Of a stretch of 64,000 bases of DNA, positions 29,759-48,453 are shown in pieces (position 1 is the first letter of the stretch; each line of letters starts with the position of its first letter). Position numbers and translations under genes: made by a program. Source of the stretch: Burkholderiales bacterium (GTDB lineage: Bacteria; Pseudomonadota; Gammaproteobacteria; Burkholderiales; Burkholderiaceae_C); assembly GCA_038243995.1 (NCBI GenBank), contig JBBRTV010000010.1, positions 82,431 through 146,430 of the forward strand, read 5' to 3'. The notes below the pieces were generated by a model. It searched no databases and was not told where the DNA came from. It was given only the letters and a program-made list of their open reading frames with translations.

Positions 29759-29777
29759 AAATCAACTCATTTGATTT
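29759..29777 (+). promoter_or_regulatory. Second operator (putative ROK site) upstream of TBDR2
   Basis: AAATCAA-CTCAT-TTGATTT palindrome containing the ATTTGATT core. Confidence 0.5.
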
Positions 29778-29791
29778 TAGAAAGCCGCGAC

Positions 29792-32593
29792 ATGATCCTC
29801 CAGCCTCAACCGCTCGCCGCCGCTGCGGCTCTCGTCCTGCTCGGCACCTGCGTTCCGGCGCAGGTACTGGCCCAGGCTGCCGCTGCGCGGGCGGCCGCGG
29901 CCGCGGCGACGGCTCCGGCCGCGACGCCGGCGTCCGCAGCCGCGGCGGACGAACTCCAGCACGTCGAGGTCACCGGCCTGCGCGCCTCGCTCGAGCAATC
30001 GCTCGCCAAGAAGCGCAACGCCGATTCCGTCATCGAGGTCGTGACCGCCGACGACATCGGCAAGCTCCCCGACAAGAACGTCGCCGATGCGATCCAGCGC
30101 GTGCCGGGCGTCAATATCGCGTCGTCGGCGGGCGGGGAAGGCGGCTTCTCCGAGAACGACCGCGTGAGCATCCGTGGCACCAGCCCCAGCCTGACGCAGA
30201 CGCTGATCAACGGGCATGCCGTCGCCTCCGGCGACTGGTTCATCCTCGACCAGCAGGGCGTGGTGGGACGCAGCGTCAGCTATTCGCTGCTGCCGTCGGA
30301 GATCGTCAAGTCGGTGACCGTTGCCAAGAGCCAGACCGCCGACCTGCCCGAAGGTGGCGTCGCGGGCTCGGTGAACATCGAGACGCGCCGTCCGCTCGAC
30401 TTCAGCAAGGCGCTCACCGTCGAACTCGCCGCGCAGGCGATCTACGCCGACCTCGCCAGGCGCACCGACCCGCAGTTCAACGGGCTGCTCAACTGGAAGA
30501 ACGAGGCCGGCACCCTCGGCGTCCTGTTGCAGGCGTTCTCCGAAACCCGACACGAGCGCCGCGACGGCCAGGAGACGTTCGGCTACGGCACCATAGACCC
30601 CGGCAGCGCCGCGGCGGTCGCCCACCCCGACCTGGCGAACGTGCTCGTGCCCTACGGCGTCAACTCGGCCTTGTTCGAGCAGACGCGCAAGCGCACCGGC
30701 GGACTGGTCGACCTGGAACTCAAGCCGAACAGCCAGCTCACGCTCGACCTGAACGGCTTCTATTCCCGCCTGAACGCGAGCAACTACAACCGCAGCTTCT
30801 ACAGCACGCCGGCCAGCCTCGTGATCGCGGCGGTTCCCGACAGCTACACCGTGCGCAACAACACGCTGGTGGCCGCGAATTTCTCTCCCGCGGCGGTGGC
30901 CGCCGGCATCGCCGCGACGACCGATCCGGGCGCGCTGTTCCAGGCGGTGCCGGCCGAGGTCGACCAGCTCTATCGCCCGAACGAGGGCGCCGAGACGTAC
31001 TACGGCGACTTGAGCGCCAGGTACCGGGCGACGGACAGCCTCACGATCACGACCAACCTCGGCTACACGCACGGCGTCGGCAAGACGCCCAACGAATACG
31101 GCTACTCGGCGGGCATCGGCCTGGACGGCACGGTCGGCATGAACTACGCGCTGCACGGCATGGGGGCCGCCGACCTCGCGCTCCCGGGCGCCGACGTGGC
31201 GAACTTCGGCACGTCGGCGTTCACCGAAGGCGGCGCGCACGACCAGGTGTTCACGTACGACAGCGAGAAATATGGCGGCGTGGACGCCGAGCTCGCGCTC
31301 GACCACGGCATCTGGGAGTCGGCCAGGTTCGGCGCGCGTTACGTAGAGCACAGCCGCCGCACGGCCTGGCCCGTCAACGACAGCTGCCAGGGCCCGGACA
31401 ATGCGGCGAATCCCGGCCCGTGCGACTTCTCGTACGGTGCGCCACGGCCGGCCTGGACTCCCGGCCACGTCTATCCCGGCAACTTCGGATCGGGTTTCGG
31501 CGGCGGCCCGGGGTCCCTGAAGAACGTGTGGCAGCTCGCGCCGTCGGACGTGGAGACGTGGGTGAAGCAGTACGCAAGCAACGGCGGCTTCGCCAGCACC
31601 GAGAACTGGCCCGCAGAATTCAGCGTGCGCGAAAGGGACACGGCTGCCTACGGCATGGTCAACCTCGCCGGCGACCGCTGGCGGGGCAACGTCGGCCTGC
31701 GCGTGGTGTCGACGCACCAGATGTCGATTTCCAACCTGTCGACGGGCGACGCGGATCCGGGCGGCAACTCGCATGGGCTCTACACGCCGACGCTCGTGGA
31801 CCACACGTTCACCGACCTGCTGCCGAGCGCCAACTTCAGGTTCGACCTGGGCAAGGACCTCGTGACGCGCGTCGCCGTCGCGCGCACGATGGCGCGCGCC
31901 GACTACAGCGCGCTGGCGACGGCGGTCTCGCTCGATGACACGCTGCACACCGGCAGTGGCGGCAACCCCAACCTGAAGCCCGTGCGCTCGACCAACTACG
32001 ACGCCACGCTCGAGTGGTACTTCGCGCCCAAGTCGCTGCTCTCGGCCGGCGTGTTCTACATGGACATCTCGTCCTACGTCGACTACGGTTCGGCTCCGGC
32101 CACCTACACCGACACCACCCACGGGGGCCACCCGGCGGTCTACGACATCACGTCGCCCGTGAACATCGCCGCGACCAACAAGGGCATCGAGCTGGGCTAC
32201 CAGCAGGCGCTGTGGTGGAACCTGGGCGTGGTCGCGAACTACACGTACACCGACGGCAAGACGGCGTCGGGCGCGGAGATGGTGGGCAACTCGAAGAACA
32301 CCTGCAACCTCGAGGCCTACTTCGACAACGACGTGCTGAGTGCCCGCCTCGCGTACACGTATCGCTCCAGCTTCCTGGCGGGCCTGAACTCCAGCTTCGC
32401 CCAGCACGAGGACGGCGTCGGCGAGCTGGCCGCATCGATGGCCTACAAGTTCAGCAAGAACCTCACGTTCACGTTCGACGCGCTCAACCTCAACAACCCC
32501 ACGTTGAAGTACTACGGCGAGAACAGGAGCCAGATGGAAGCGCTCTATACCAGCGGCCGCCAGTTCTACCTGGGCGTGCGCGTGTCGCTCTGA
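29792..32593 (+). CDS. TonB-dependent receptor 2
   Basis: Signal peptide, VEVTGLRASL, ADDIGKLPDKNVADAIQRVPGV, GNPNLKP, GRQFYLGVRVSL. Confidence 0.95.
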   Translation: MILQPQPLAAAAALVLLGTCVPAQVLAQAAAARAAAAAATAPAATPASAAAADELQHVEVTGLRASLEQSLAKKRNADSVIEVVTADDIGKLPDKNVADAIQRVPGVNIASSAGGEGGFSENDRVSIRGTSPSLTQTLINGHAVASGDWFILDQQGVVGRSVSYSLLPSEIVKSVTVAKSQTADLPEGGVAGSVNIETRRPLDFSKALTVELAAQAIYADLARRTDPQFNGLLNWKNEAGTLGVLLQAFSETRHERRDGQETFGYGTIDPGSAAAVAHPDLANVLVPYGVNSALFEQTRKRTGGLVDLELKPNSQLTLDLNGFYSRLNASNYNRSFYSTPASLVIAAVPDSYTVRNNTLVAANFSPAAVAAGIAATTDPGALFQAVPAEVDQLYRPNEGAETYYGDLSARYRATDSLTITTNLGYTHGVGKTPNEYGYSAGIGLDGTVGMNYALHGMGAADLALPGADVANFGTSAFTEGGAHDQVFTYDSEKYGGVDAELALDHGIWESARFGARYVEHSRRTAWPVNDSCQGPDNAANPGPCDFSYGAPRPAWTPGHVYPGNFGSGFGGGPGSLKNVWQLAPSDVETWVKQYASNGGFASTENWPAEFSVRERDTAAYGMVNLAGDRWRGNVGLRVVSTHQMSISNLSTGDADPGGNSHGLYTPTLVDHTFTDLLPSANFRFDLGKDLVTRVAVARTMARADYSALATAVSLDDTLHTGSGGNPNLKPVRSTNYDATLEWYFAPKSLLSAGVFYMDISSYVDYGSAPATYTDTTHGGHPAVYDITSPVNIAATNKGIELGYQQALWWNLGVVANYTYTDGKTASGAEMVGNSKNTCNLEAYFDNDVLSARLAYTYRSSFLAGLNSSFAQHEDGVGELAASMAYKFSKNLTFTFDALNLNNPTLKYYGENRSQMEALYTSGRQFYLGVRVSL

Positions 32594-32660
32594 CGCCGAC
32601 GCGGCCCCGCCGCATCGATGCCGAAGAGACTGGAATATCCTGCCCTGCCCGATCGCCGGC

Positions 32661-33977: not shown

Positions 33978-34178
33978 GGGTGGCCTTCGGTCCGCGTGCG
34001 GACGCCGGCGATGCGCGCCGTCGGCTGCGACCGGGTGTCGCCCCCGAAATGTAGGGCGCTTCGGGGCCCGGAGGCAACGTACACCGGCGCCGGCGTGCCG
34101 ACCCGGGCGCGGCGCGCTGGCGCGAAGCGAGGCACACTCTGGAGGCAACGAGTCGTTGCGTCGACCGAGAACCCGCAC

Positions 34179-34610
34179 ATGCCCTCCCGCAACATCACGC
34201 GAAGAAGCGCCGCGATCCTGGTGGCCAGCCTGCCCGTCGGGCGCTTCGCGTTCGCCGCCCGCGAGGGCGTGGAGATCAGGTTCGTGATCAAGCGCGAACA
34301 GCGCCAGCCCTCGGGGGCCATCGCGGAGCGCCGCTTCGAGAACGCCATGCTGATGGCGTCGGGTGAGACGATGGAAGTCGACTTTCGCGACGAATATCGC
34401 ATCCGCATGACGACGACGATCGCCGGGGCGTCCGCCAACGTCAAGCTCCAGGTGTGGGACAACCACGAGACGGGCACACGCGCCGATGCCGGCCAAGCCA
34501 TGACGAGCGTTCCCCTGGACGGGGAGACGACGCTGACGCTGCTCAAGTCGGACAACGTCCATTATCCGATCGTCCTGAAGGCGACGCGCCGCGCGCTCTC
34601 CACCCGCTGA
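34179..34610 (+). CDS. Hypothetical exported protein (143 aa)
   Basis: N-terminus MPSRNITRRSAAILVASL...FAFA resembles a signal peptide; beta-rich body; no family recognised. Confidence 0.5.
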   Translation: MPSRNITRRSAAILVASLPVGRFAFAAREGVEIRFVIKREQRQPSGAIAERRFENAMLMASGETMEVDFRDEYRIRMTTTIAGASANVKLQVWDNHETGTRADAGQAMTSVPLDGETTLTLLKSDNVHYPIVLKATRRALSTR

Positions 34611-34615
34611 GGACG

Positions 34616-34650
34616 AAAAAATCCGGTCGACACCCCGAAGCGTCGACCGG
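34616..34650 (-). terminator. Intrinsic terminator (probably for the GH8 gene)
   Basis: A-run followed by CCGGTCGAC-N10-GTCGACCGG. Confidence 0.55.
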
Positions 34651-34770
34651 CTCGCAATGCCCAAGGGAATTGGGCTCGCCCGAAATCGAATTCCGGCAGC
34701 GTCGCCTGCAGCCGCAGGATCGCCTCTCCAGGGCGCCCTAACCCCTGCGCGCGGCGGCGGCGTCAGTGCG

Positions 34771-36189
34771 TCAAGGCGTCCACCAGTTGCCCGACACGGT
34801 GATCAGCACCTGCATGCGGATCGTGTCGCCGTAGTAGTCGTTGGTGGTGCCGTAGTCGCCGCCGGTGATCGAGGTCCACAGGCTGTTGAGCCAGGCCTGG
34901 CCGGCGGAGCCGCCGAGCATCGCGTCGACGGCCATCGGCGCCGTGAACGCCAGGTCGTCGTAGCTCACGTACGACTTCCCGTTGGTACCGTTCTTGATGT
35001 AGTAGCCCGCGCGCACCTTGTTGGGCGTGCCCCCGGTCAGGCCCCGGATCCACGACGCGGTTTTCACCTGCGTCGCCTGCATGTCGGTCTTGCCGTTGGC
35101 AATGTAGGACATCGACAGGCGCCACGGCGTGCGGCAGGCGTTGTAGTCGAAGTCGCCGTCGTGCTTCGTCTCGAGATAGGTGCCCGGGACCGGCACGAAG
35201 TTCGAGCCCGAGAGCACCATGAAGTCAGGGAGGATGCCGGTCGCGCCGCTGCCGTGCGCGTACTGGTAGTTCACGATCGTCGAGACCTCGTTGTAGACGT
35301 TGTTCCACTTCGAGGTGTTGGCCGTGTCGTATTTCGCGAACGCGATGAAGTGATCCGTCATGTAGTCCGACGGGCGCGTGTGGTTCTCGTCGCTGGTCGT
35401 GCCGTGTGCCCAGTCGCCGGCGGTCAGGTTCCAGTGGGTCTGGTTGACGTCCCAGGTCAGGATGTCGTGGAGGATGGCGAGCGCCGCGGCCTTGTAATCG
35501 ATGCTGCCCGAGGAGCCCCACTGCTGGTCGGCGACCAGCAGGCCGTAGGCGATGTCGAGGTCGCCGTCGGTCGCCGAATCGGCGCCCTCGACGTTCTTCA
35601 TCGTGCCGCCCGACAGCGACTGCTTCCACGCCATCAGGTGCGGGCCGTTGGTGCTGTAGTGCTTCGTGTAATAGCCGTACATCGCATCGAACGTCGACTG
35701 GTCGGCCATGTACGCGGAAATCACCATGCCGTAGCCGTGCGCCTCGGAGACGGTGTTGTTGCCGCTGTCGTACTTGACCCAGGTTCCCTGTCCGCCGCTG
35801 GTGCGCAGGTAGGTCGTCTTCCAGCTCGCATAGAGGCTCTGCACCTTCGCGTCCATCGTCGATTGCGAGACGTTGGTCGGCTTGATGACGCCGCTCGTGT
35901 AGGTGGTGTGGTGCGGGAACGGCTTCGTGGCGGCCAGCGGCACCGTGGCCAGGGGCTCGGCGACAGCGCCGGCGAGCGCGGCGCTGTCGGATTCGGTCGT
36001 CGCCGACTCGATGCCCATGGATCGCGCATCGCCCGCAGGCGCGCGGGCGTGCGTGGCGCGCACGCCGACGCTCGCCGACTGGGGCGTCGTGACGGGGGCG
36101 ACCGGCGTGCTGTCCGCGCCGCCGCCGCAGGCCGCCAGCAAGGCAGCCGTCACGAGCGACAACGGAAATCCCATCTGTCTCGTCTTCAT
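34771..36189 (-). CDS. GH8 chitosanase/lichenase-type lipoprotein
   Basis: Lipobox LAAC; KPFP...GVIKP, VSEAHGYGM, DSATDGDLDIAYGLL, TRPSD, TGILPDF, YNACRTPWR, VSGNWW.P match Bacillus GH8 chitosanases from recall; AGGAG RBS. Confidence 0.85.
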   Translation of the reverse strand: MKTRQMGFPLSLVTAALLAACGGGADSTPVAPVTTPQSASVGVRATHARAPAGDARSMGIESATTESDSAALAGAVAEPLATVPLAATKPFPHHTTYTSGVIKPTNVSQSTMDAKVQSLYASWKTTYLRTSGGQGTWVKYDSGNNTVSEAHGYGMVISAYMADQSTFDAMYGYYTKHYSTNGPHLMAWKQSLSGGTMKNVEGADSATDGDLDIAYGLLVADQQWGSSGSIDYKAAALAILHDILTWDVNQTHWNLTAGDWAHGTTSDENHTRPSDYMTDHFIAFAKYDTANTSKWNNVYNEVSTIVNYQYAHGSGATGILPDFMVLSGSNFVPVPGTYLETKHDGDFDYNACRTPWRLSMSYIANGKTDMQATQVKTASWIRGLTGGTPNKVRAGYYIKNGTNGKSYVSYDDLAFTAPMAVDAMLGGSAGQAWLNSLWTSITGGDYGTTNDYYGDTIRMQVLITVSGNWWTP

Positions 36190-36207
36190 CGATATCTCCT
36201 CGAGTTC

Positions 36208-36215
36208 AATCAAAT
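36208..36215 (-). promoter_or_regulatory. ATTTGATT motif upstream of the GH8 gene
   Basis: Plus strand AATCAAAT, 18 bp upstream of the start codon. Confidence 0.45.
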
Positions 36216-36399
36216 CGGAATCGCATCGGGCAGCGCCCGCGATGGGGCGCCGCGCGTCTGGCCGGTTGTTCTGCGCAGAGTGGATCGATCTCCTTGGGAC
36301 GGGCGGGGCTTCGTTCAACACCCTCGCCGTGCGCGATTGCAGCGCGCAGGCGGGAACGAGCGGGACGTGTGTCGCGGGTCGACGGGCGCGCGGGGCCGG

Positions 36400-37626
36400 T
36401 CACGCATGCGCGTCGACCTTCAGCAGCACGCCCAGGTTGGGATTGAGTTCGTCGAAGATCGGCAGCGCGGCGGCACCGAGCGCGGCGGTGTCGTGGCCCG
36501 CCAACCCCGCGATGACGCGCGGCGTCTGGCGATTGCGGCGCGCGGCCACGGAGGTGTGGAGCGGCTCGAGGCGCTCGATCAGCAGCGCGAGCACCGACGA
36601 CGGCAGGAAGCCCCCGATGACGATCGCCTCGGCGTCCAGCAGCGACTCGAGGATGTTGACGGCCTGGCGCAGGCGCTGCGCCGCCTCGTCGAGCCAGGCA
36701 TCGAGGCGCGCGCGCGCCACGGGGCTCGGATCGAGCAGCATCTGCGGGCTGGCGTGCGCGATGTCGCCCAGCTCGAGCGCCTCGTAGGCCGCCTGCAACG
36801 AAACGTAGCGCTCCAGGCAGCCCCGGTTGCCGCACGGGCAGGGGCGGCCGTCCGGCACCACGATCATGTGCCCGATCTCGCCCGCGTTGTGGCCCGAGCC
36901 CTTGTACAGGTGGCCGTCGTGGAACATGCCGGCGCCGAGGCCCGTGCCGATGAACAGGTAGGTGAAGCTGCGGAAGGTGCGCGCGACGCCGTGCAGGCGT
37001 TCGCCGATCGCCGCGGCGGTGGCGTCGTTCTCCATGATCACCGGCAAGCCGATCGCCTGGCCGATCTGCTGCGCGATCGACAGGTCTTGCCAGCCCGGCA
37101 GGGCCGTGGGGCCGACTGCGCTGAGACCTTCGACGTCGAACGGGCCCGGCACTGCGAGGCCCACGCCCAGCACGCGGCTCCATTCGACGTCCGACGACTT
37201 CTTCAGCGTTTCGACCACGTCGCGCACCAGCGGCAGCGCCTGCGCCGGCGTCGGATGATCGACCGCCAGCGTGCAGCGACCGCGCACCTTTCCCGAGAGG
37301 TCGACCACGACCGCCACCATCGTGCGCTGGTCGATCTGCAATCCGATCGAATAGGCGCCGTCCGGATTGATGACGAACGGCGTCGCCGGCTGCCCGCGCG
37401 TGCCGCGCTCGGGCTCAAGCGCATTCAGGAAGCCGAGCTTCTGCAGCTCGCTGGCGATGTTGGAGATCGTCTGCGGGGTCAATGCCGTCAAGCGGGCGAT
37501 GTCGGCCCGGGTCAGTCGGCCGTGCAGGCGAATGGCCTCCATCACCACGCGCCGGTTGTGCGAACGCGCGAATTCGAGGTTGGTGCCGGACAGGCTGGCG
37601 ACGGGAGGCATGTTCACCGGAGGCAT
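36400..37626 (-). CDS. ROK family transcriptional repressor
   Basis: HTH TRADIARLTALTPQTISNI, MENDATAAAIGE, GTGLGAG, GEIGHM...CPCGNRGCLE. Start is 37626 or 37611. Confidence 0.93.
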   Translation of the reverse strand: MPPVNMPPVASLSGTNLEFARSHNRRVVMEAIRLHGRLTRADIARLTALTPQTISNIASELQKLGFLNALEPERGTRGQPATPFVINPDGAYSIGLQIDQRTMVAVVVDLSGKVRGRCTLAVDHPTPAQALPLVRDVVETLKKSSDVEWSRVLGVGLAVPGPFDVEGLSAVGPTALPGWQDLSIAQQIGQAIGLPVIMENDATAAAIGERLHGVARTFRSFTYLFIGTGLGAGMFHDGHLYKGSGHNAGEIGHMIVVPDGRPCPCGNRGCLERYVSLQAAYEALELGDIAHASPQMLLDPSPVARARLDAWLDEAAQRLRQAVNILESLLDAEAIVIGGFLPSSVLALLIERLEPLHTSVAARRNRQTPRVIAGLAGHDTAALGAAALPIFDELNPNLGVLLKVDAHA

Positions 37627-37647
37627 GGCGATTGAAGGCGATTGCAG

Positions 37648-37670
37648 TTTATTAAAATAATCAAATTGAA
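37648..37670 (-). promoter_or_regulatory. Putative ROK autoregulatory site
   Basis: Minus strand TTCAATTTGATTATTTTAATAAA, a very AT-rich island upstream of the ROK gene. Confidence 0.5.
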
Positions 37671-37911
37671 GTAATACTCGCGAACCCTGAGCGGGGGCGT
37701 TGGCAGGCTGAACCGCGCTTGCCCGATAGCCGCCACGCGCCGGCGCACGACGCACCCGACGTCGATTGGAACTGGCCGCGTCCGGTGTCGCCGGCCGCCG
37801 CACTGTGCCCTCTGACGGCGGCGTTGCGCGCCTTCATTGTGACGTCGATGGGGGGAACGCCGTTGTCATCCGCAGCGATGACGCCGGGTGTAAACCCTCT
37901 CCGTCGGGAAC

Positions 37912-37964
37912 TTGACCACCCGGGCCCTCGTTCTGATAATGAAAACAATTTGATTTAAACCAAA
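37912..37964 (+). promoter_or_regulatory. Sigma70 promoter and putative ROK operator of the ABC operon
   Basis: TTGACC-17 bp-GATAAT, then AAAACAA-T-TTGATTT (imperfect palindrome, 37942-37956) followed by AAACCAAA. Confidence 0.65.
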
Positions 37965-37967
37965 CCG

Positions 37968-40393: not shown

Positions 40394-41321
40394 CCGCCCA
40401 CGGCTCCCGGCGGCTGCGGCCCCCGGGATGCGCTCGTCCGGCCCGGGGCGGCCCGGCGCTCGCCCGCGCAAGCGCTCCTCGCGCAAGGCATGGAACCAGC
40501 GTGCCCTGAACGCGCTCACCTGGGCCATCGTCGCGCTCACGCTGTCGCCCGTGGCGTTCATGGTCTACGCCTCGCTGTCCGACTACAACGACATCGCGGC
40601 CGGCGCGCTGGTGCATGCCGCCTTCACGCCGCACTGGTCGAACTACCGCGAAATGTGGGTCAACGTCGACTTCCTCTCGTTCCTGCGCAACAGCCTGATC
40701 ATCTGCGGCCTCACGACGGTGATCTCGACCTTCCTGGCCAGCCTCGCCGCCTATGCCCTTGCGCGCTTCCGCTTCCGCGGCAACCACGCGTTCAGTGTCG
40801 CGGTGAGCACGACGCAGGTGATCCCCGGCATGCTGTTCTTCCTGCCGCTGTACATGCTCTACATCCAGCTCGACGACGCCGGGCTCCCCATGATGAACAC
40901 GTACCACGGGATGATCTTCCTGTACTGCGCGATGTTCACGCCGGCGAGCATCTGGATCATGCGCGGCTTCTTCGTCTCGATTCCGCGCGACCTCGAGGAC
41001 GCCGCCGTGATCGACGGCTGCTCGCGCTTCGGCGCCTTCATCCGCATCGTGCTGCCGATCAGCGCGCCCGGCATCATCGCGACGGCTTCTTTCGTGTTCC
41101 TGCTGGCGTGGGACGAGGTCTTTTTCGCGTGGGTGCTCACCTCGTCGCCCGACGTGCAGACGGTGCCGGTCGGCCTGCGTCTCTACATGGGCCAGCACGC
41201 GACCCGCTACGACCTGATGATGGCCGCCGCCGTCGTCAGCGTGATTCCCGTGCTGCTGACGTTCTTCGCCTCCCAGCGCTGGTTCATCAAGGGACTGGCA
41301 GCCGGCGCGGTCAAGGGATGA
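40383..41321 (+). CDS. Carbohydrate ABC transporter permease
   Basis: LRNSLII, YALARFRFRG, IPRDLEDAAVIDGCSRFGAFIRIVLP, RYDLMMAAA. Confidence 0.92.
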   Translation: MAHDRPRLPAAAAPGMRSSGPGRPGARPRKRSSRKAWNQRALNALTWAIVALTLSPVAFMVYASLSDYNDIAAGALVHAAFTPHWSNYREMWVNVDFLSFLRNSLIICGLTTVISTFLASLAAYALARFRFRGNHAFSVAVSTTQVIPGMLFFLPLYMLYIQLDDAGLPMMNTYHGMIFLYCAMFTPASIWIMRGFFVSIPRDLEDAAVIDGCSRFGAFIRIVLPISAPGIIATASFVFLLAWDEVFFAWVLTSSPDVQTVPVGLRLYMGQHATRYDLMMAAAVVSVIPVLLTFFASQRWFIKGLAAGAVKG

Positions 41322-41328
41322 CGACCCC

Positions 41329-42471
41329 ATGGACGCCCCCGACCGAGCCGATTCCGTCGACGCCCATCGCGACGACGTCGTCGATGCGCACGTCCCGAAC
41401 ACCAACACTGCGCCCGCTGCCATCGCAGCCCGCGCGCCCGAACCGCGCTCCATGACGACTTCCATTTCAACGAGAGCGCCCGCGACGGGCCCCCTTCCCG
41501 CGCTGCCGACCGCCCCGCGCGTGCTCGCCTTCGACATCGGCGGCACGTGGGTCAAGATCGGCGTCGTCGATGCCACGGGTGCCGTGTTGCATGTCGAACA
41601 GCTGGCGACGCAGAGCGTGCCCGACGGCAAGGCCCTGCTGGCGCGACTGCTGACGATCGCCCGGCCCCTGGTCGCGAGCTGGGCGCCCGTCGGCGTCGCG
41701 TTCTCCACCCTGGGCATCATCGACCCGCGCGAAGGTCGTCTCGTCGGTGCCGTCGAGGCGATCGAAGGCTATTTCGGCCAGTCGCCAAAGGCGTCCTTCG
41801 AAAGCGCGTTCGGGCTGCCGGTCGTGGTCGAGAACGACGGCAACTGCGTCGCCCTCGCCGAGGGCTGGACGGGGTCCGCCGTAGGCCTGAAGCACTACAT
41901 CGCGCTCACGCTGGGCACCGGCATCGGCGGCGGGATCGTGATCGACGGTCGCCTCTACCGCGGCGCCAACGGCGCGGCCGGCGAATGGGGCTACATGCTG
42001 GTGGAGGGCAAGGTATGGGAAGACCACGCCTCGCCACGCGGACTCGCCGCGGCGGCCGAGCGCGCGCGCCCCGGCTGCGGCTACGACGCCGCGGCGGTCT
42101 TCGCCGCGCGCGACGCCGGGGACGACGTCATGCGCGGGGTGCTCGCGCAGTGGTTCGCGCTGCTCGCCACCGGCCTGGCGAACCTGCTGTTCGCGTTCAA
42201 TCCGGCGCGCGTCATCATCGGCGGCGGCATTACCGCGCGCGGCCCGGACTTGCTACAGGAATTGCGCGCCGAGATGCGGCTGCGGCTGCGGCCCGATTTC
42301 TACCGGATGTGCGACATCGTGCTGGCCAGCGCCGGCAACCAGGCCGGCCTGCTCGGCGCCGCGCGACGCTGGCTGGACGAACTCGGCGGCGCGAACGCGC
42401 CCGCGTCGCCCGCCACCCCCTTGTCCCCGCCGCCGGCGGACCGCGCGCCGTCGCCATCCGCTTCCGCCTGA
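41329..42471 (+). CDS. ROK family sugar kinase (candidate glucosamine or glucosaminide kinase)
   Basis: FDIGGT, VENDGNCVALAE, LGTGIGGGI, GAAGEWGYM; no HTH. Start is 41329 or 41452. Confidence 0.85.
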   Translation: MDAPDRADSVDAHRDDVVDAHVPNTNTAPAAIAARAPEPRSMTTSISTRAPATGPLPALPTAPRVLAFDIGGTWVKIGVVDATGAVLHVEQLATQSVPDGKALLARLLTIARPLVASWAPVGVAFSTLGIIDPREGRLVGAVEAIEGYFGQSPKASFESAFGLPVVVENDGNCVALAEGWTGSAVGLKHYIALTLGTGIGGGIVIDGRLYRGANGAAGEWGYMLVEGKVWEDHASPRGLAAAAERARPGCGYDAAAVFAARDAGDDVMRGVLAQWFALLATGLANLLFAFNPARVIIGGGITARGPDLLQELRAEMRLRLRPDFYRMCDIVLASAGNQAGLLGAARRWLDELGGANAPASPATPLSPPPADRAPSPSASA

Positions 42472-42476
42472 TCGCC

Positions 42477-44207
42477 ATGCAAGTCCTGCTCAATCATGTC
42501 GGGTTCCGGCCCGCTTCGCCCAAGCGGGCTTTCGTGCAGCATGACGAGCCCGTCGCCGCGCAAGGCTTTTCGGTCGTCGACGCGCGCACGCGCCGCGTCG
42601 TCCACACCGGATCGCTGCAGCCGCTCCAGCCCGCCGCGGGCTGGCAGGGCCGCCACTTCGCCGCCGTCGACCTCGACGCGCTGACGACCCCGGGCACCTA
42701 CTACGTGATGCTCGACGGTGCCTGGCCGCCGGTGCTGTCGCAGAACTTCGCGATCGGCGAGACGCTGTTCGGCAGCCAGATGCTGTCGGACATCGTCCAC
42801 TACTTCAAGTCACAGCGCTGCACGGGCCGGTTCGACGCCGCCGACCGCAGCGCGCCGCTGTTCGACACGCGCGCGCCGCGCGACGTGCACGGCGGCTGGT
42901 ACGACGCCTCCGGCGACTGCTCGAAGTACCTGTCTCACCTGTCGTACGCGAACTTCATGAATCCGCAGCAGACGCCGCTGGTCACCTGGACGCTGCTGGC
43001 CGGCCGCGACCGCCTTCCCGCGCAGTCCACGTGGCTCGACGAGCGCATCGTCGACGAGGCGCTGCACGGCGCCGACTTCCTGGTGCGCATGCAGGCGCCC
43101 GAAGGCTTCTTCTACACGACGGTGTTCGACAAGTGGAGCAAGGACGAGCACCAGCGCGAGATCTGTTCCTACGCGACACAGAAGGGCATCAAGTCGGCCG
43201 ACTACCAGGCCGGCTTCCGCCAGGGTGGCGGCCTCGCGATCGCCGCGCTCGCCCGCGCCAGCGGCCTGTCGCGCGACGGCGAGTTCACGCGCGCCGACTA
43301 TCTCGACCGCGCGGCGCGCGCCTTCGACGTGCTCGAGACGCGCAATGTCGATTTCGTCGACGACCATCAGGAGAACCTGATCGACGACTACTGCGCACTG
43401 CTGGGCGCCAGCGAGCTCTGCGCCCGCACGGGCGACGCGCGCTGGCGCGACGCGTCCGCGCGGCGTGCGCACCGCATCGTCGCGCAGCAGGATGCGCAGG
43501 GCTTCTTCTGGTGCGACCGCGCCCGCACGCGCAGCTTCTTCCACGCCAGCGATGCCGGCCTGCCCTGCATCGCGCTGATGCGCTTCCTCGAGTGCGTTCC
43601 CGACACCGACCTCGCTCCCGCGATCCGCGGCACCCTGTTGCGCGCCTTGCGCTTCGAGCTCGAGATCACGCACGGTGGTGGCGCCGGCGCGAACCCGCTC
43701 GGGTATCCGCGCCAGTACGTCGTCATGCCCGGGCGGGCGCCGTCCACGCAGTTCTTCGTGCCGCACGACAATGAAAGCGGCTACTGGTGGCAAGGCGAGA
43801 ACGCCCGCCTGGGCTCGCTCGCGACCGCCGCGCGCGCCGCCGCCGGGCTGCATCTCGCCGATGCCTCGTTCGACGCCACCCTCGACGCTCATGCCGACGG
43901 GATCCTCGACTGGATCTTCGGCGCCAACCCGTTCGACACCTGCATGCTGCAGGGCTGGGGCCACGACCCGCCGCGCTACGAGCCCGGGTTCTGGAACGCC
44001 GCCGGAGGCGTCTGCAACGGCATCACGTCCGGACTGGACGACGAACGAGACATCGATTTCCGCAAGCCTGAAGAGACCGTGCCCATGCACTCGTGGCGCT
44101 GGACCGAGCAGTGGATCCCTCATGCGGCGTGGCTGTACTGCGCGCTCGCACACGGGCTCACCACGCCGCAGACGCCGCACCCCCCCTTTGTCGCGGACAC
44201 GCGCTGA
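42477..44207 (+). CDS. GH9 exo-beta-D-glucosaminidase-like enzyme (Vibrio VC0615/Photobacterium type), cytoplasmic
   Basis: MQVLLNHVGF, GGWYDASGDCSKYLSHLSYANFMNPQQTP, AGFRQGGG, HDNESGYWWQGENARL, NGITSG, WRWTEQWIPH; no signal peptide. Confidence 0.85.
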   Translation: MQVLLNHVGFRPASPKRAFVQHDEPVAAQGFSVVDARTRRVVHTGSLQPLQPAAGWQGRHFAAVDLDALTTPGTYYVMLDGAWPPVLSQNFAIGETLFGSQMLSDIVHYFKSQRCTGRFDAADRSAPLFDTRAPRDVHGGWYDASGDCSKYLSHLSYANFMNPQQTPLVTWTLLAGRDRLPAQSTWLDERIVDEALHGADFLVRMQAPEGFFYTTVFDKWSKDEHQREICSYATQKGIKSADYQAGFRQGGGLAIAALARASGLSRDGEFTRADYLDRAARAFDVLETRNVDFVDDHQENLIDDYCALLGASELCARTGDARWRDASARRAHRIVAQQDAQGFFWCDRARTRSFFHASDAGLPCIALMRFLECVPDTDLAPAIRGTLLRALRFELEITHGGGAGANPLGYPRQYVVMPGRAPSTQFFVPHDNESGYWWQGENARLGSLATAARAAAGLHLADASFDATLDAHADGILDWIFGANPFDTCMLQGWGHDPPRYEPGFWNAAGGVCNGITSGLDDERDIDFRKPEETVPMHSWRWTEQWIPHAAWLYCALAHGLTTPQTPHPPFVADTR

Positions 44208-44246
44208 CCCCGCAGCGCCGAAGACGCAAGCCTCGAGGCCTCGCTC

Positions 44247-47036
44247 ATGAACTTCAGACTCGAACCCCTGGCATCCGCGGCGGCGGTGTTGCTGTCGGGC
44301 GCGCTCGCGCCCGCCCAGGCGCAGGACGCGCCCGCTCCGCCGACGTCGCAACCCGGCGCCGCCGCCACGCCCCCCGACGTCCAGGTCGTCGAGGTCAAGG
44401 GCATCCGCGCCTCCTACGCCTCGTCGCTGGGCAGCAAGAAGAGCGCCGATTCGCTCGTCGAGGTCGTCACGGCGGAAGACGTCGGCAAGCTGCCGGCGAA
44501 GAACGTCGCCGATACCGTGCAACGCCTGCCGGGCGTGAACATCAGCTCCAATTCGGGCGGCGACGGCGCCTTCGCCGATGCCAACCGCGTGAGCATCCGC
44601 GGCACCGCCCCGTCGCTGACGCAGACGCTCGTCAACGGCCACAGCGTGGGCAGTGCCGACTGGTTCATCGCGAACCAGGGCGTCAACGGGGGCGCTTCCG
44701 GCCGCAGCGTCAGCTACGACCTGCTGCCGTCGGAGATCGTCGGCAAGGTCACGGTCTACAAGGCCTCGCAGGCCGACCTGATCGAGGGCGGCGCGACGGG
44801 CTCGGTCGACATCGAAACCCGCTCGCCGCTGAGCCTGGCCAAGTCCTTGACGCTCGACGGCACGATCGAGGCGGCCTACAGCACCTCGACCCGCAAGGTC
44901 GACCCCCAGCTCAGCGGCCTGGTCGGCTGGAAGAACGACGCCAAGACGATGGGCGTGATCCTGCAGGTGTTCTCGGAGAAGCGCCACGACCGGCGCGACG
45001 GCCAGGAATTCCTCGGCTACGACACGATCTCGCTGCAAGGCATCGCCGACGGGCTGGGCGTCGACAAGTCCACGTTCCCGGCGAACGCCGCGGGCCTCGA
45101 GGGCGTGACCTACGCCAACAATGTCAATGCCACGCTGCTCGAGATGACGATGGAGCGCAAGGGCGGCCTCGTCGACCTCGAACTCAAGCCCACGAGCGCA
45201 CTGCGGATCGACTTCAACGGCTTCTATTCCAAGGTGACGGAAACCAACCAGGACTCGAGCCTCGAGACCGAGCAGACCGCGTTGATCAACTCGGGCATCT
45301 TTCCCGACTCCTACAAGGTCGCCAACGGCCTGCTCACCCAGGCGACCTGGAACCAGGCGACGATGCCCGACTACGCGTCGACCGGCGCCTACCAGGCCGA
45401 CTACGACAAGTACTACCGCCCCGGCGAGAATGCGCGCGTCTACTACGCCGACCTCGACGTCGACTTCGCGGCCTCCGACAAGCTGCGCCTGAGCGGCAAG
45501 CTCGGCAAGACCCAGGCCGTCGGCGCGACGCCGAACGAATACGCCTACGTGACCAACGTCGGCAACGCCGGCCTGAGCTACCAGATGAACGGCCTGCACA
45601 CGCCCGCGGACGTCTCGTTTCCCACCTTCCCGAACACGGCCAACTTCAACGATCCGCACCTCTTCCTCGCGTACGACGGCTTGAACAAGGTGAAGTCGAC
45701 CGACCAGGAGACTTACCTGCAGGGCGACGCCGAATTCGCCGTCGAGAGCGGCGTGCTGGATGCGATCAAGGTCGGCGCCCGCATCACGAGCCACCAGCGC
45801 AGCGTGCTCGACTACTACAACGACGGGTGCTTCGCGCAGCCAGCCGATGCCACGTTCACGCAGTGCAACGGCCTTGCCGCCTGGCACGGCGAGATCGAGA
45901 ATCGCTATGGCCAGGGCCTGGGGGGCGGCCCCGGTTTCCTGCATGACATCTGGCAGCTCAGCCCCGGCGCGATCGCCGACTACGTCAACGCACCGGGCAA
46001 CCTGCCGGCGACGTCGATACCCTATTCGTGGCCCAGCAGCTTCGTCGTCAACGAGAAGACGACGGCGCTCTACGGCATGGCCAAGCTCGCGGGCGAGCGC
46101 TGGAAGGGCAACGCCGGGCTGCGCGTCGTGCGCACGCGCCAGGAGGCGAACTACAACGAGGGCGCCGACGCCGCCGCGCCCGGGGACACGATCTACGCCG
46201 ATCCGCACAACGGCGACTACATCCGCGTGCAGACGAGCAAGACCTACACCGACCTGCTGCCGAGCGCGAACCTGAGCTATGAATTCACGCGCAACCTGGT
46301 CGGCCGCTTCTCGGCGGCGCGCACGATGACGCGGGCGGACTACACCGACCTGGCGGGCGCCGTGAGCCTGAACGGCCAGAACGGCACAGGCTCCGGCGGC
46401 AACCCCCGGCTCAAGCCGGTGCGCTCCAGCAACTTCGATGCGTCGCTGGAGTGGTACTTCGCGCCGCAGTCGCTGTTCGAGGTCGGCGTGTTCTACATGG
46501 ACCTGACCTCGTACATCGGCTACGGCCAGACGACCGTCACCGCCCCCAACCTGCAGCAGGGCATCCCGACGCCGACGTTCGACTACGCCGTGGCGGTGCC
46601 GGTCAACGACAAGGGCACCAACAAGGGCTTCGAGATCGCCTGGCAGCAGCCGGTCGGCGCGGGCTTCGGCCTCGACTTGAACTACACCTTCGCGCGCGGT
46701 CGCGATTCGAACGGCGCTCCGCTCGCGGGCTCGTCGAAGAACACGTACAACGCGCAGGCCTGGTTCGAGAACGACGTCTTCAACGCGCGCCTGATCTACA
46801 GCTACCGGTCGGACTTCCTGACGGGCATCGTCAGCACGCTGCCGCAGTACGTCGCCGGCGCGGGCGACGTCTCTGCCTCGATCAACGTCAAGCTGACGCA
46901 CCAGCTGTCGCTGTCCTTCGACGCGAAGAACCTCACGGGCGAGCTCGCGCGCCAGTACGTCGAGCGCAAGGACATGCCGTCGGCGATCTACAACAACGGC
47001 AAGCAGTACTACCTGGGCTTGAAGTACTCGATGTGA
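44247..47036 (+). CDS. TonB-dependent receptor 3
   Basis: Signal peptide, VEVKGIRASY, AEDVGKLPAKNVADTVQRLPGV, GNPRLKP, GKQYYLGLKYSM. Confidence 0.95.
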   Translation: MNFRLEPLASAAAVLLSGALAPAQAQDAPAPPTSQPGAAATPPDVQVVEVKGIRASYASSLGSKKSADSLVEVVTAEDVGKLPAKNVADTVQRLPGVNISSNSGGDGAFADANRVSIRGTAPSLTQTLVNGHSVGSADWFIANQGVNGGASGRSVSYDLLPSEIVGKVTVYKASQADLIEGGATGSVDIETRSPLSLAKSLTLDGTIEAAYSTSTRKVDPQLSGLVGWKNDAKTMGVILQVFSEKRHDRRDGQEFLGYDTISLQGIADGLGVDKSTFPANAAGLEGVTYANNVNATLLEMTMERKGGLVDLELKPTSALRIDFNGFYSKVTETNQDSSLETEQTALINSGIFPDSYKVANGLLTQATWNQATMPDYASTGAYQADYDKYYRPGENARVYYADLDVDFAASDKLRLSGKLGKTQAVGATPNEYAYVTNVGNAGLSYQMNGLHTPADVSFPTFPNTANFNDPHLFLAYDGLNKVKSTDQETYLQGDAEFAVESGVLDAIKVGARITSHQRSVLDYYNDGCFAQPADATFTQCNGLAAWHGEIENRYGQGLGGGPGFLHDIWQLSPGAIADYVNAPGNLPATSIPYSWPSSFVVNEKTTALYGMAKLAGERWKGNAGLRVVRTRQEANYNEGADAAAPGDTIYADPHNGDYIRVQTSKTYTDLLPSANLSYEFTRNLVGRFSAARTMTRADYTDLAGAVSLNGQNGTGSGGNPRLKPVRSSNFDASLEWYFAPQSLFEVGVFYMDLTSYIGYGQTTVTAPNLQQGIPTPTFDYAVAVPVNDKGTNKGFEIAWQQPVGAGFGLDLNYTFARGRDSNGAPLAGSSKNTYNAQAWFENDVFNARLIYSYRSDFLTGIVSTLPQYVAGAGDVSASINVKLTHQLSLSFDAKNLTGELARQYVERKDMPSAIYNNGKQYYLGLKYSM

Positions 47037-47244
47037 GCGGCGCTCCGGGGTCGTCCCGAACGGCCACCGGAATCTCCTGCGCACGCAGCCGCCCAGGCCG
47101 GTCGTGCGACGGTTTATGGCGGGCTGCGATCTTCCAGGTGGCACAAGGGCGGGCCTGGCGCCTGGATCCGTTGCAGCGGGGTCGACAGCCCGCCACCCAT
47201 TTTGCGCGCATCTGGTTACATCCACGCATCGAACGACAAGCATC

Positions 47245-48453
47245 TTGATCACGACCCTCACGCGCCAACGCATCCTGTCGATCGACGCCCTGCGCGGGCT
47301 GACGATCCTCGTCATGGTCTTCGTCAACCAGCTCGCGGGTGTCAGCGGCGTGCCGCAGTGGGCGCGCCACATGAAGGCCGATGCCGACGCGATGAGTTTC
47401 GTCGACGTCGTCTTCCCGGCTTTCCTGTTCATCGTGGGGATGGCTATCCCGTTCGCGCTCGACCAGCGCATCGCGCGCGGAGACGACGGCGGCGCGCTGC
47501 AGCGCCATGTGCTCGGCCGCACGGCCGGCCTGGTCGTGCTCGGCCTGTTCATGGTCAACGCCGAAGACGGCTTCAACGCCGCGTTCATGCCGTGGTCGAT
47601 ATCGGCCTGGTCGCTGGCGCTGTACGGCTGCGTGTTCCTCGTCTGGGGTGTCTACGGATCGCGCGAACCCGGTGGCCTGAACGTGTGGCGTACCGTGGGC
47701 ATGCTCGGCTTGCTGGTCCTGGCCGACGCCTGGCACGGCGGCGCCGACGGCACGCGCTGGGTGACGCATCAGTGGTGGGGCATTCTCGGCCTGATCGGCT
47801 GGTCGTACCTGATCGCCGCGACGGTCTACCTCGGCTGCGGAGGCCGTCTCGGGGGCCTGTTCGTCGCGATCGCGGGCTGCATCGGGTTCTACGCCGCGGC
47901 GCATGCCATCGCCGTGCCGCCGCATTCCGCCTGGGCCGATCTTCTCGACGAGCGCGGCATGGTCTGCGAGACCTCGCTCACCCTGCTGGGCATCGTGACC
48001 ACCCTGATCTTCTTCGGCGAGCGGCGCGCCCCGGGGCAAGCGGAGCGCGCGACGCTGCGCCAGCGCTTCCTCCAGGCGTTGGCGCTGGTCGGCGCGCTCG
48101 TGGTCGCCGGCGCCCTGTTGCGTCCGCTCTACACGATCTCGAAGATCTACGGGTCGCCGACCTGGTGCCTCTACTCGGGCGCGATCTGCATCACGTCGTT
48201 CGCCGCCCTGACCTGGCTGATCGACGTGCGACGCCATGCCGGCTGGGTGCGGCTGGTCGCTCCGGCCGCGGCGAATCCGCTGCTCGCCTACCTGATTCCG
48301 TTCGTGGTCGAGGCGGCGCTCGGCGTATTCCACGTCGCGCTGCCGGACGTCCTGGAGCACGGCGCGGCCGGCGTCGCTTTCAGCGCGGCGTTTGCCGTTC
48401 TCGTGCTGGGCATGACGGCGCTGGCCGCGCGCCGCGTGCGCCTGCAGCTCTGA
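47245..48453 (+). CDS. nagX: NagX/DUF5009 membrane protein (HGSNAT-like acyltransferase family)
   Basis: RILSIDALRGLTILVMVFVN, DVVFPAFLFIVGMAIPF, WWGILGLIGWSY, ISKIYGSPTW, ANPLLAY; TTG start uncertain. Confidence 0.75.
   Translation: MITTLTRQRILSIDALRGLTILVMVFVNQLAGVSGVPQWARHMKADADAMSFVDVVFPAFLFIVGMAIPFALDQRIARGDDGGALQRHVLGRTAGLVVLGLFMVNAEDGFNAAFMPWSISAWSLALYGCVFLVWGVYGSREPGGLNVWRTVGMLGLLVLADAWHGGADGTRWVTHQWWGILGLIGWSYLIAATVYLGCGGRLGGLFVAIAGCIGFYAAAHAIAVPPHSAWADLLDERGMVCETSLTLLGIVTTLIFFGERRAPGQAERATLRQRFLQALALVGALVVAGALLRPLYTISKIYGSPTWCLYSGAICITSFAALTWLIDVRRHAGWVRLVAPAAANPLLAYLIPFVVEAALGVFHVALPDVLEHGAAGVAFSAAFAVLVLGMTALAARRVRLQL

Follow-up and report, generated by a model that had tools for sequence, protein, structure and literature searches.

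The window analysed here, 64,000 nucleotides of DNA from a soil or freshwater Burkholderiales bacterium with a genome of 6.0 Mb, carries between 29792 and 48453 a set of glycosidase, transport, kinase and regulatory genes. With their control elements and the next gene downstream, they are as follows.

29741-29756, NagQ-type repeat, followed at 29759-29777 (+) by the palindrome AAATCAACTCATTTGATTT, 5' of TBDR2
29792-32593, +, TBDR2 (TIGR01782, 586 bits)
32661-~34000, -, DUF3422 membrane protein, not named in the initial annotation
34623-34650, strong terminator after the GH8 gene
34771-36189, -, GH8 outer-membrane lipoprotein with a long linker (Pfam; subfamily with 5XD0 and ChoK)
36400-37626, -, transcription regulator of the ROK family, wHTH domain at the N-terminus (Pfam, NCBIfam)
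37650-37677, strand not set, conserved operator block, core TCAAATTGA, before the ROK regulator gene
37912-37958, +, promoter TTGACC-17-GATAAT directly followed by the operator AAACAATTTGATTTAA, for the SBP operon
37968-39350, +, family-1 solute-binding protein, SBP (Pfam)
39386-40393, +, ABC permease 1 (Pfam)
40383-41321, +, ABC permease 2 (Pfam)
41329-42471, +, sugar kinase of the ROK family, lacking an HTH domain (Pfam, NCBIfam)
42477-44207, +, cytoplasmic GH9 of the exo-beta-glucosaminidase/glucosidase clade (CelD_N and GH9 domains)
44247-47036, +, TBDR3 (TIGR01782, 559 bits)
47104-48453, +, NagX, HGSNAT-like membrane protein (DUF5009/HGSNAT; Pfam; PMC9007349)
48694-50037, +, methyl-accepting chemotaxis protein (MCP), 3' of NagX (Pfam)

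Each gene that the initial annotation had named was found by Pfam and NCBIfam, in an order slightly unlike the one it described. It had also listed two TBDRs besides TBDR3; TBDR2 and TBDR3 do lie in this range, but the first TBDR lies outside, just upstream. The GH8 protein has the lipobox L-A-A-C and then a linker of ~85 residues, and the GH9 protein has no signal peptide. The real start of the ROK kinase is probably later than annotated, near residue 42 of its open reading frame, and the probable start of NagX is near 47245; His at residue 89 of the NagX frame (47368-47370) aligns with His297 of HGSNAT, the catalytic histidine. No terminator-like site was seen inside the divergent operon from SBP to NagX. 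The MCP gene at 48694-50037 is kept downstream of NagX in relatives (81-83% identical in L001, L004, L005 and L036), and its membership of the system is uncertain.

Upstream lies an island of nag genes.

13826-14728, +, nagK, BadF/BcrA-type N-acetylglucosamine kinase, first in the nag operon (NagK_SO3507, E 1e-48, below the curated cut-off)
14725-15858, +, nagA, GlcNAc-6-P deacetylase (TIGR00221, 256 bits, above cut-off)
15839-16861, +, nagB-II, SIS-type GlcN-6-P deaminase (Pfam SIS; NagB_SO3506, E 1e-79)
16858-18420, +, NagZ-like GH3 beta-N-acetylhexosaminidase (Pfam GH3; PRK05337, 214 bits, above cut-off)
18485-19858, +, AmpG-family MFS permease (Pfam, NCBIfam)
19864-20808, +, divergent GH16-like protein, secreted, ExDxE motif invariant
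20904-22007, +, MalK/MsiK-type ABC ATPase (Pfam, NCBIfam)
23659-24402, -, NagQ-like GntR/UTRA (HutC-type) regulator (Pfam; NagQ-type direct repeats nearby)
24689-24704, NagQ-type box of TBDR1
24831-27563, +, TBDR1 (TIGR01782, 576 bits), beside the nagK-nagA-nagB-II-GH3-MFS operon
27732, a further MCP, which, like the DUF3422 protein, is not conserved in relatives

No permease gene accompanies the MsiK-type ATPase gene in its operon, and the permeases of the SBP operon, 17 kb away, have no ATPase; in related loci an ATPase gene lies between permease 2 and GH9. The orphan ATPase probably powers the distant importer. The glucosamine pathway is predicted to exit through the product of nagB-II.

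Two kinds of candidate operator mark the promoters. NagQ-type TGGTA direct repeats, a motif taken from PMC4494728, lie 5' of nagK, TBDR1 and TBDR2. A TCAA-N-TTGA palindrome occurs at the ROK and SBP promoters, the latter a 10/12 match to sigma-70, and a spaced variant lies 5' of TBDR2, where its adjacency to the NagQ-type repeat links the locus to the nag regulon. The operator footprints are kept while the surrounding intergenic DNA has diverged. The TBDR2-upstream palindrome persists in L005 and L038, and the block before the regulator gene also precedes a ROK-GH9 pair in Chromobacterium. The ROK regulator itself is 94-95% identical in L001, L005 and L038. These motifs suggest pairings of the ROK regulator with the palindromes and of the NagQ-like regulator with the repeats.

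The arrangement recurs. Contigs L086 and L087 and a 41-kb JGI contig have the same gene order, GH8-ROK-ABC-GH9-TBDR, with GH8 66-77% identical in metagenome contigs of this order. The arrangement is also present in MAG loci L001, L005 and L038; the closest MAG loci, L001 and L005, lack GH8 and carry a Cupin_8 gene instead. The host is a betaproteobacterium, as had been thought probable: its nearest GH9 relatives (72-79% identical, mostly 76-78%) come from MAGs that bear the labels Burkholderiaceae, Betaproteobacteria, Burkholderiales or Vitreoscilla. In Ideonella, GH8-NagX-TBDR, with NagX and TBDR genes overlapping by 4 bp, is divergent from SBP-permease-permease-MsiK-GH9. This version was built independently, making two separate juxtapositions of GH8 with TBDR/ABC/GH9 genes, one in the clade of the window and one in Ideonella.

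These genes form a conserved unit. Their clustering is not chance because the arrangement recurs, because GH8, GH9, NagX and SBP are each single-copy in the genome, and because the three TBDRs are mutual closest paralogues (42-48% identity; next closest 25%). It could still be argued that GH8, NagX and the TBDRs are functionally uncoupled from the ROK/ABC/GH9 operon and adjoin it fortuitously, as the missing GH8 of L001 and L005 and the lack of conservation of DUF3422 and the MCP at 27732 would allow. We regard this as very improbable, given the recurrent order at the GH8 identities above, the independent arrangement in Ideonella and the operator motifs common to the promoters.

It is less straightforward to say which polymer the locus serves. 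The initial annotation had likened the GH9 to Vibrio and Photobacterium exo-beta-glucosaminidases, and its membership of that clade was confirmed by full-length matches to VP2484, VC0615 and PBPRA0520 (E 1e-152 to 1e-164). The VC0615/PBPRA0520 clade prefers GlcN oligomers at least 10-fold over cello-oligomers (PMC6096475). Because this preference has no known structural basis, the specificity of the GH9 cannot be read from its sequence. Every informative context sampled for the clade involves amino sugars: the chitin operons of Vibrio, as described in the literature; a spirochaete ROK-SBP-permease-permease-GH9-GH20 arrangement; ROK-GH9 pairs in chitin-associated genera of Chitinibacteraceae; and Burkholderiales loci carrying NagX or NagQ. 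Loci of Acidothermaceae and Actinomycetota (L037, L024) are uninformative. In five bacteria, genetic evidence shows that glucosamine use requires NagX (PMC9007349); here it shares an operon with GH9, and its retention of the HGSNAT catalytic histidine also counts for a glucosamine substrate. NagX also lies within an ordinary nag operon in Paucibacter, so that it marks amino-sugar metabolism generally rather than chitosan specifically. The surrounding genes all handle amino sugars, which counts for a glucosamine substrate.

Several components nevertheless point elsewhere. The GH8, assigned at the outset to a chitosanase-or-lichenase type, shares 49% identity with BGlc8H of Paenibacillus (5XD0), and the chitosanase ChoK is a far weaker match (E 1e-50). 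Cel8Pa, 95.6% identical to BGlc8H, is mainly a beta-1,3-1,4/1,4-glucanase, with 24.5 IU/mg on barley beta-glucan versus 1.4 IU/mg on chitosan (~6% relative activity); the closest characterised kin is in the main a beta-glucanase. Further out, GH8 homologues occur as orphan genes in Ramlibacter, Methylocella and Nanopelagicales. At 43% identity, a Thermus beta-glucoside-binding protein matches the SBP, which is also close to CbpB, a binder of cellodextrins; chitin-oligosaccharide binders are remote (E 1e-6). The best family model for the ROK kinase, below its cut-off, is the beta-glucoside kinase BglK. With the hydrolysis of cello-oligomers by VC0615 and PBPRA0520 and a GH16-like gene in the island, these features would fit a beta-glucan or cellodextrin locus, in which GH8 is an endo-beta-1,4/1,3-1,4-glucanase, the TBDRs and ABC transporter import cello- or mixed-linkage oligomers, GH9 is an exo-beta-glucosidase and the ROK protein is a gluco- or beta-glucoside kinase; adjacency to NagX and the nag genes would then be coincidental or reflect a shared fungal-wall diet. 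We consider this an unlikely reading, if the most serious competitor. It leaves unexplained the co-operonic NagX in two independent arrangements and the NagQ-type box of TBDR2, it runs counter to the GlcN preference of the GH9 clade, cellulases or GH1/GH3 beta-glucosidases occur in 0 sampled GH9 contexts, and there is no phospho-beta-glucosidase to follow a BglK-type kinase.

An intermediate case would be dual specificity for fungal walls, with enzymes and transporter taking GlcN- and Glc-containing beta-1,4 oligomers, including chitin/chitosan-glucan hetero-oligomers, alongside the GH16-like enzyme and the nag operon. Bifunctional enzymes are documented in this GH8 subfamily and in the GH9 clade, and GH16-like, GH8, GH3 and GH9 genes lie under two interlinked regulators in one island; but no evidence is specific to this idea, which is hard to tell from the other two and which we judge improbable.

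Literature searches found no published description of such a locus, in keeping with the initial annotation, but its parts resemble known systems. First, the GH9 loci of Vibrio and Photobacterium (VC0615, VP2484, PBPRA0520), chitobiose operons whose GH9 is 45-48% identical to ours in Vibrio, share a cytoplasmic CelD_N-GH9 enzyme matched over its full length, an immediately adjacent sugar kinase gene and an upstream ABC importer. The window kinase is ROK-type, however, unlike the BadF-type GlcN kinase GspK; the SBP here is of another family than the Vibrio chitobiose-binding protein; and the locus adds TBDRs, a GH8 endo-enzyme and NagX and is without chitobiose phosphorylase. Second, the csnR-K system of Streptomyces comprises the ROK repressor CsnR, the ABC importer CsnEFG, CsnH and the kinase CsnK. 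The window appears to follow a like logic, with a ROK repressor gene that precedes or diverges from those for an ABC importer, glycosidase and ROK kinase and a co-controlled secreted endo-chitosanase, and the resemblance would be one of logic alone. Here GH8 stands in for GH46 as the endo-enzyme, GH9 is the exo-enzyme, and the Gram-negative host, unlike Streptomyces, needs TBDRs as well as an enzyme in the form of an outer-membrane lipoprotein. ABC import of GlcN oligomers is documented in PMC4663542. Third, the CUT/Nag regulons of Xanthomonas, Shewanella and Caulobacter share TIGR01782 'Xanth-Caul' TBDRs, a NagQ-like GntR regulator with TGGTA repeats, SO3507-type NagK, SO3506-type NagB-II and NagX. 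Those systems take GlcNAc and chitin oligomers via NagP, whereas the window adds the ROK-controlled ABC/GH9/kinase branch and GH8. Fourth, Paenibacillus BGlc8H/Cel8Pa and Bacillus ChoK share the GH8 fold and the SEAHGYG and DSATDGDLDIAY motifs, but the window enzyme sits in a Gram-negative envelope as a lipoprotein with a long linker. Finally, many motif blocks are common to the SBP and the Thermus thermophilus beta-glucoside-binding protein (7C63 series). This protein and C. thermocellum CbpB belong to beta-glucoside or cellodextrin operons, whereas the window SBP is encoded in an amino-sugar island, together with GH9 and NagX.

As had been noted, the window contains no GH18 or GH19 chitinase in a Pfam scan of its GC3-supported open reading frames; one clear GH18 gene lies elsewhere in the genome, on contig C52. 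The architecture first proposed for a pathway from chitosan to GlcN-6-P and NagB-II (tethered endo-enzyme, TBDRs, ABC importer, cytoplasmic exo-GH9, ROK kinase, neighbouring NagB-II) is supported, with chitosan as the probable substrate. In this pathway, the GH8 lipoprotein, anchored in the outer membrane by its linker, would cleave polymer to oligomers that the paralogous TBDRs bring into the periplasm, and the SBP and two permeases, energized by MsiK, would move them to the cytoplasm. There GH9 would release GlcN units from the non-reducing end, the adjacent ROK kinase would form GlcN-6-P, and NagB-II would yield fructose-6-P. In a parallel branch, NagX may acetylate periplasmic GlcN or oligomer-end GlcN with cytoplasmic acetyl-CoA, its product feeding the classical nagK/nagA route. 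The ROK regulator would act on the TCAA-N-TTGA operators of the SBP promoter and of its own promoter, which would also serve GH8, and the NagQ-like regulator would govern the nag operon, TBDR1 and TBDR2. We put at roughly 60% the probability that this conserved locus within the nag island scavenges oligosaccharides by TonB-dependent uptake and under ROK repression, with chitosan or partly deacetylated chito-oligomers as its substrate. Fungal walls are one example of where the most likely substrate, chitosan or partly deacetylated chitin, could come from.

The G+C content of the window is about 69%, so genes were chosen by third-position GC and then identified with Pfam and NCBIfam models. Every gene named in the initial annotation, which had proposed a TonB-dependent, ROK-regulated chitosan/glucosamine utilization locus at 29792-48453, was found, together with a DUF3422 membrane protein absent from it.

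Genes of the locus (coordinates, strand, product)
29792-32593, +, TonB-dependent receptor TBDR2
32661-~34000, -, DUF3422 membrane protein (Pfam E 3e-161)
34771-36189, -, GH8
36400-37626, -, ROK regulator with wHTH
37968-39350, +, solute-binding protein (SBP)
39386-40393, +, permease 1
40383-41321, +, permease 2
41329-42471, +, ROK kinase without HTH
42477-44207, +, GH9 (CelD_N plus GH9, without signal peptide)
44247-47036, +, TonB-dependent receptor TBDR3
47104-48453, +, NagX-like protein (DUF5009/HGSNAT_cat)
48694-50037, +, methyl-accepting chemotaxis protein (MCP)

The stretch from the SBP gene to NagX is free of terminator-like sites, and a 12-bp hairpin with a T-tract lies 3' of GH8. The 6.0-Mb genome has one copy each of GH8, GH9, NagX and the SBP. 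The three receptors, TBDR1 (24831-27563), TBDR2 and TBDR3, all belong to TIGR01782 and are mutually closest paralogues (42-48% identity; next in the genome, 25%). As previously noted, no GH18 or GH19 domain occurs among the GC3-supported ORFs scanned in the window. The host genome has one clear GH18, on a different contig; GH46, GH20 and LPMO10 gave no matches in that genome, nor did GH19, in a search that had no positive control and so carries no weight.

Receptor, inner-membrane transporter, degradative enzymes and regulator are thus clustered as in the carbohydrate utilization (CUT) loci of Proteobacteria. The earlier label "PUL/CUT-style" holds in its second half only: all genes adjoining the three receptors were identified and none is SusD-like, so that, lacking a SusC/SusD pair and residing in a member of the Burkholderiales, the locus is not a Bacteroidota PUL. 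Its parts have several known counterparts. The CsnR-K system of Streptomyces likewise combines a ROK repressor, an ABC importer, a glycosidase and a kinase, and the proposed "CsnR-like logic" is apt in that sense, although the likeness is one of functional logic only. The Vibrio chitobiose operon shares the GH9-plus-kinase step, and the Nag regulons and CUT loci of Xanthomonas and Shewanella share NagQ (a GntR-type regulator of nag genes), NagX, NagB-II and TIGR01782 receptors. The locus is a CUT locus and Nag regulon of the proteobacterial kind, with an added ROK-controlled branch (GH8, ABC importer, GH9 and kinase); it is coherent and conserved, but not surprising in principle.

The closest relatives of the GH9 (72-79% identical, mostly 76-78%) are in metagenome-assembled genomes (MAGs) labelled Burkholderiaceae, Betaproteobacteria, Burkholderiales or Vitreoscilla, in agreement with the betaproteobacterial host suspected at the outset. 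Next in line, at 51-59%, are homologues from Silvimonas, Deefgea, Chitiniphilus, Chitinibacter, Jeongeupia, Chromobacterium, Ideonella, Piscinibacter and Oxalobacteraceae, and the Vibrio and Photobacterium enzymes follow at 45-48%. Gene order recurs as well. The closest MAG loci (L001, L005 and L038) have the ROK regulator and then SBP-permease-permease-ROK kinase-GH9-TBDR-NagX-MCP, with regulators 94-95% identical to that of the window. In two metagenome contigs, whose GH8 proteins are 77% and 66% identical, GH8 lies directly 3' of the ROK regulator, and this pair is divergent from SBP-permease-permease-ROK-GH9-TBDR. A 41-kb contig is syntenic with the window over the flavin oxidoreductase, nag operon, ATPase, TPR protein, GntR regulator, two receptors and GH9 operon. 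Ideonella carries a compact, independently arranged version among unrelated flanking genes, with GH8, NagX and a receptor on one strand (the latter two genes overlapping by 4 bp), divergent from SBP-permease-permease-MsiK-GH9. That the genes are merely adjacent, without forming a system, we regard as very improbable. The module is rare: among 301 sampled genomes of the order, 9 have its GH9, and among 201 sampled genera of the family, 4 do. Close homologues of the locus genes are common in soil and freshwater metagenomes.

In L001 and L005, the TBDR2 orthologue and the ROK regulator are not separated by DUF3422 or by GH8; L001 has a Cupin_8 gene in that slot. A paralogue of DUF3422, 58% identical, is on host contig C25. 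Two MCPs flank the locus. The one 3' of NagX has counterparts 81-83% identical in four related loci, and this conservation suggests a chemotactic response to the substrate; the other, at 27732-29510 (-), is not conserved. DUF3422 and this second MCP were considered as parts of the system and rejected because they are not kept in the syntenic contigs. A 143-aa ORF of coding-like composition at 34179-34610 (+), between DUF3422 and GH8, matches no family and shares with GH8 a bidirectional hairpin terminator (34623-34650). Farther away, a 508-aa ORF at 9995-11521 (+) has a strong coding signal (GC3 0.89) and no Pfam match even at E 10.

The surroundings of the locus form an amino-sugar island. 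Its upstream genes begin with nagK (SO3507 type), nagA and nagB-II (SO3506 type), and continue with a GH3 beta-N-acetylhexosaminidase, an AmpG-family MFS permease, a secreted protein of ~314 residues and a MalK/MsiK-type ATPase; on the opposite strand follow a secreted TPR-like protein and a GntR/UTRA regulator, and then TBDR1 and an MCP. The ~314-residue protein (19864-20808, +), between the permease and MsiK, has no Pfam or NCBIfam match, but a profile of 20 homologues weakly matches GH16 1,3-1,4-beta-glucanases in the PDB (E 0.02-0.07). It has an invariant S-E-x-D-x-E motif (E159, D161, E163) and more than 2000 homologues, several of which, 60-65% identical, are named "GH16 protein" by NCBI; in Paucibacter its gene is flanked by those for the MFS permease and NagX. 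Such a divergent GH16-like enzyme as a constant component of nag operons seems not to have been characterized before. The alanine-rich TPR-like protein (22086-23390, -; 434 aa) is kept beside the GntR regulator, with a 40% identical counterpart in the Ideonella locus L026 and another in the 41-kb contig.

The island may also complete the importer. The ABC operon is missing its ATPase gene, the nag operon has an ATPase gene with no permease genes to go with it, and in other genomes MsiK occupies the exact slot of the window's ROK kinase; for these reasons the nag-operon MsiK (20904-22007) would be the energy source for the SBP-permease system. Among related loci (L013, L022, L030 and L093), MsiK is found in the slot after permease 2 and before GH9, and NagX is in the nag operon (Paucibacter), whereas in the window clade the ROK kinase takes the MsiK slot, MsiK ends the nag operon and NagX stands behind TBDR3. 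The three genes appear to have swapped places.

Two sets of regulatory signals were recognized. First, the four exact copies of the 8-mer AATCAAAT in the 64 kb all lie in promoter regions of this locus, namely those of TBDR2, GH8, the ROK regulator and the SBP. With one mismatch allowed, the window has 8 copies against 7 expected, which is no enrichment, and weight was given only to exact copies and conserved footprints. Aligned with three relatives, the ROK/SBP intergenic region has diverged except for two islands: TATTAAMATAATCAAATTGAAGTAAT, adjoining the regulator gene, and TTGACC-17-GATAAT followed directly by AAACAAWTTGATTTAA, which coincides with the sole strong sigma-70-like match in the region. 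The TCAA-N-TTGA core is also present 5' of the regulator gene in another relative (L086) and of the Chromobacterium ROK-GH9 pair, and L005 and L038 keep the palindrome AAATCAACTCATTTGATTT that precedes TBDR2. GH8 has only a half-site as its own operator and is probably co-transcribed with the ROK regulator. A genome-wide search for AATCAA-N-TTGATT gave 23 matches at up to two mismatches, mostly unremarkable, with no clear further regulon members. Second, the GntR regulator is of HutC type, with GntR and UTRA domains (Pfam), and exact copies of TGGTNNTANAGTGGTA stand upstream of nagK, TBDR1 and TBDR2, where 0.01 chance matches are expected. The published NagQ motif consists of direct repeats of TGGTATT (PMC4494728), and regulator type and repeats of this kind 5' of the targets together identify a putative NagQ regulon. 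Since TBDR2 has both this repeat and a ROK-type operator, it seems to answer to both regulators.

What the locus imports is less clear than that it is a system. The GH9 matches PDB entries 3H7L, 6GDT and 5DGQ over residues 1-557 (E 2e-164 to 2e-152) and aligns in full length with VP2484, VC0615 and PBPRA0520 of Vibrio and Photobacterium, sharing their N-terminal Ig/Fn3-like and (alpha/alpha)6 domains (Pfam CelD_N plus GH9). At the motif level, the catalytic Asp/Asp (DAGD-type) and C-terminal Glu are found in GGWYDASGD and WRW-EQWIPH, aligned to VP2484 (residue roles from PMC6096475). Those three enzymes act in exo mode, leave (GlcNAc)2 uncut and hydrolyze (GlcN)n much faster than cello-oligomers. 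Reading specificity from active-site residues was abandoned because the structural papers offer no rationale for the GlcN preference. Adjacency of a kinase gene to GH9 in the window, in Chitinibacteraceae and in Vibrio suggests that the ROK kinase phosphorylates the monomer that GH9 would release, with NagB-II at hand next door. NagX contains the HGSNAT catalytic domain (Pfam HGSNAT_cat, DUF5009), and its histidine at ORF residue 89 aligns with the acetyl-carrying His297 of HGSNAT (PMC9007349). Fitness data from five bacteria show that NagX is needed for growth on glucosamine, and it has been proposed to be a transmembrane acetyl-CoA:GlcN acetyltransferase (PMC9007349). As the last gene of the nag operon in Paucibacter, NagX marks amino-sugar metabolism broadly.

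Other components point toward beta-glucan or cellodextrins. The GH8 is a member of its family by Pfam, with the SE(A/G)(H/Q)GYG proton-donor motif aligned, but it is nearest to Paenibacillus BGlc8H (5XD0; 49% identity, E 7e-103), the match to the Bacillus chitosanase ChoK (1V5C, E 1e-50) being far weaker. Cel8Pa, 95.6% identical to BGlc8H, prefers barley beta-glucan (24.5 IU/mg, versus 17.9 on lichenan and 1.4 on chitosan), so the nearest characterized homologue is mainly a beta-glucanase and a minor chitosanase. The SBP has 43% identity with a Thermus beta-glucoside-binding protein and is a near relative of CbpB, a binder of cellodextrins G2-G5, and the best family model for the kinase is BglK, though well below its cut-off (NCBIfam). 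Against a beta-glucan locus, the sampled GH9 contexts contain no cellulases or beta-glucosidases, and the GH9 clade has the preference for (GlcN)n described here; we consider this alternative possible but distinctly the weaker. GlcN and Glc oligomers are nearly equal in shape, and for that reason the BGlc8H, SBP and BglK similarities fit either substrate. A truly dual fungal-wall locus, handling both, seems unlikely.

Gene context of GH8 was rejected as a substrate test, its more distant homologues being orphan genes. Linkage to the locus is limited to the lipoprotein clade, at identities of at least 65%, all of whose members have the lipobox (MKTRQMGFPLSLVTAALLAAC-GGG at the N terminus) and the ~85-residue alanine/proline-rich linker after it; more distant homologues have ordinary signal peptides.

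A Spirochaetales MAG (L052, 5550-13527) has a compact ROK-SBP-permease-permease-GH9-GH20 operon, which may be a Gram-negative chito-oligomer module lacking a receptor. Taken together, the GH9 clade, NagX, the placement of ATPase and kinase, and this spirochaete parallel favour GlcN-containing oligomers, from chitosan or partly deacetylated chitin, as the predicted substrate, at a probability of roughly 0.6. The initial proposal of a chitosan locus thus stands as to architecture, GH9 clade and NagX, and is qualified as to substrate, where GH8, SBP and kinase are nearest to beta-glucan-type proteins.

If GlcN oligomers are the substrate, two parallel routes can be envisaged. In one, ABC import would be followed by GH9 and then a ROK GlcN kinase; in the other, NagX would re-acetylate the sugar in the periplasm. 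A previously undescribed ROK repressor acting on a TCAA-N-TTGA operator, cross-wired to NagQ, would control the locus. We give about even odds that the whole, rare and patchy in Burkholderiales, would be the first proteobacterial TonB-dependent system dedicated to chitosan or partly deacetylated chito-oligomers. The expectation that such a locus had not been characterized was borne out to the extent that the full-text literature, with most subscription journals outside its coverage, yielded no description of a TBDR-linked chitosan locus.

Work on chitosan assimilation in bacteria was scarce as of a 2015 review (PMC4663542), and the process is poorly studied beyond Streptomyces and Bacillus. 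Were beta-glucan the substrate, the locus would be a fairly ordinary CUT system. If it does serve chitosan, it would reveal how a polycationic polymer passes both membranes of a Gram-negative cell, assign NagX to a definite pathway step and provide a biological role for the GH9 exo-glucosaminidase clade outside Vibrio. The specificity of the lipoprotein GH8 and of the TBDR/SBP set would be of biotechnological interest, and the locus would aid the interpretation of soil and freshwater metagenomes.
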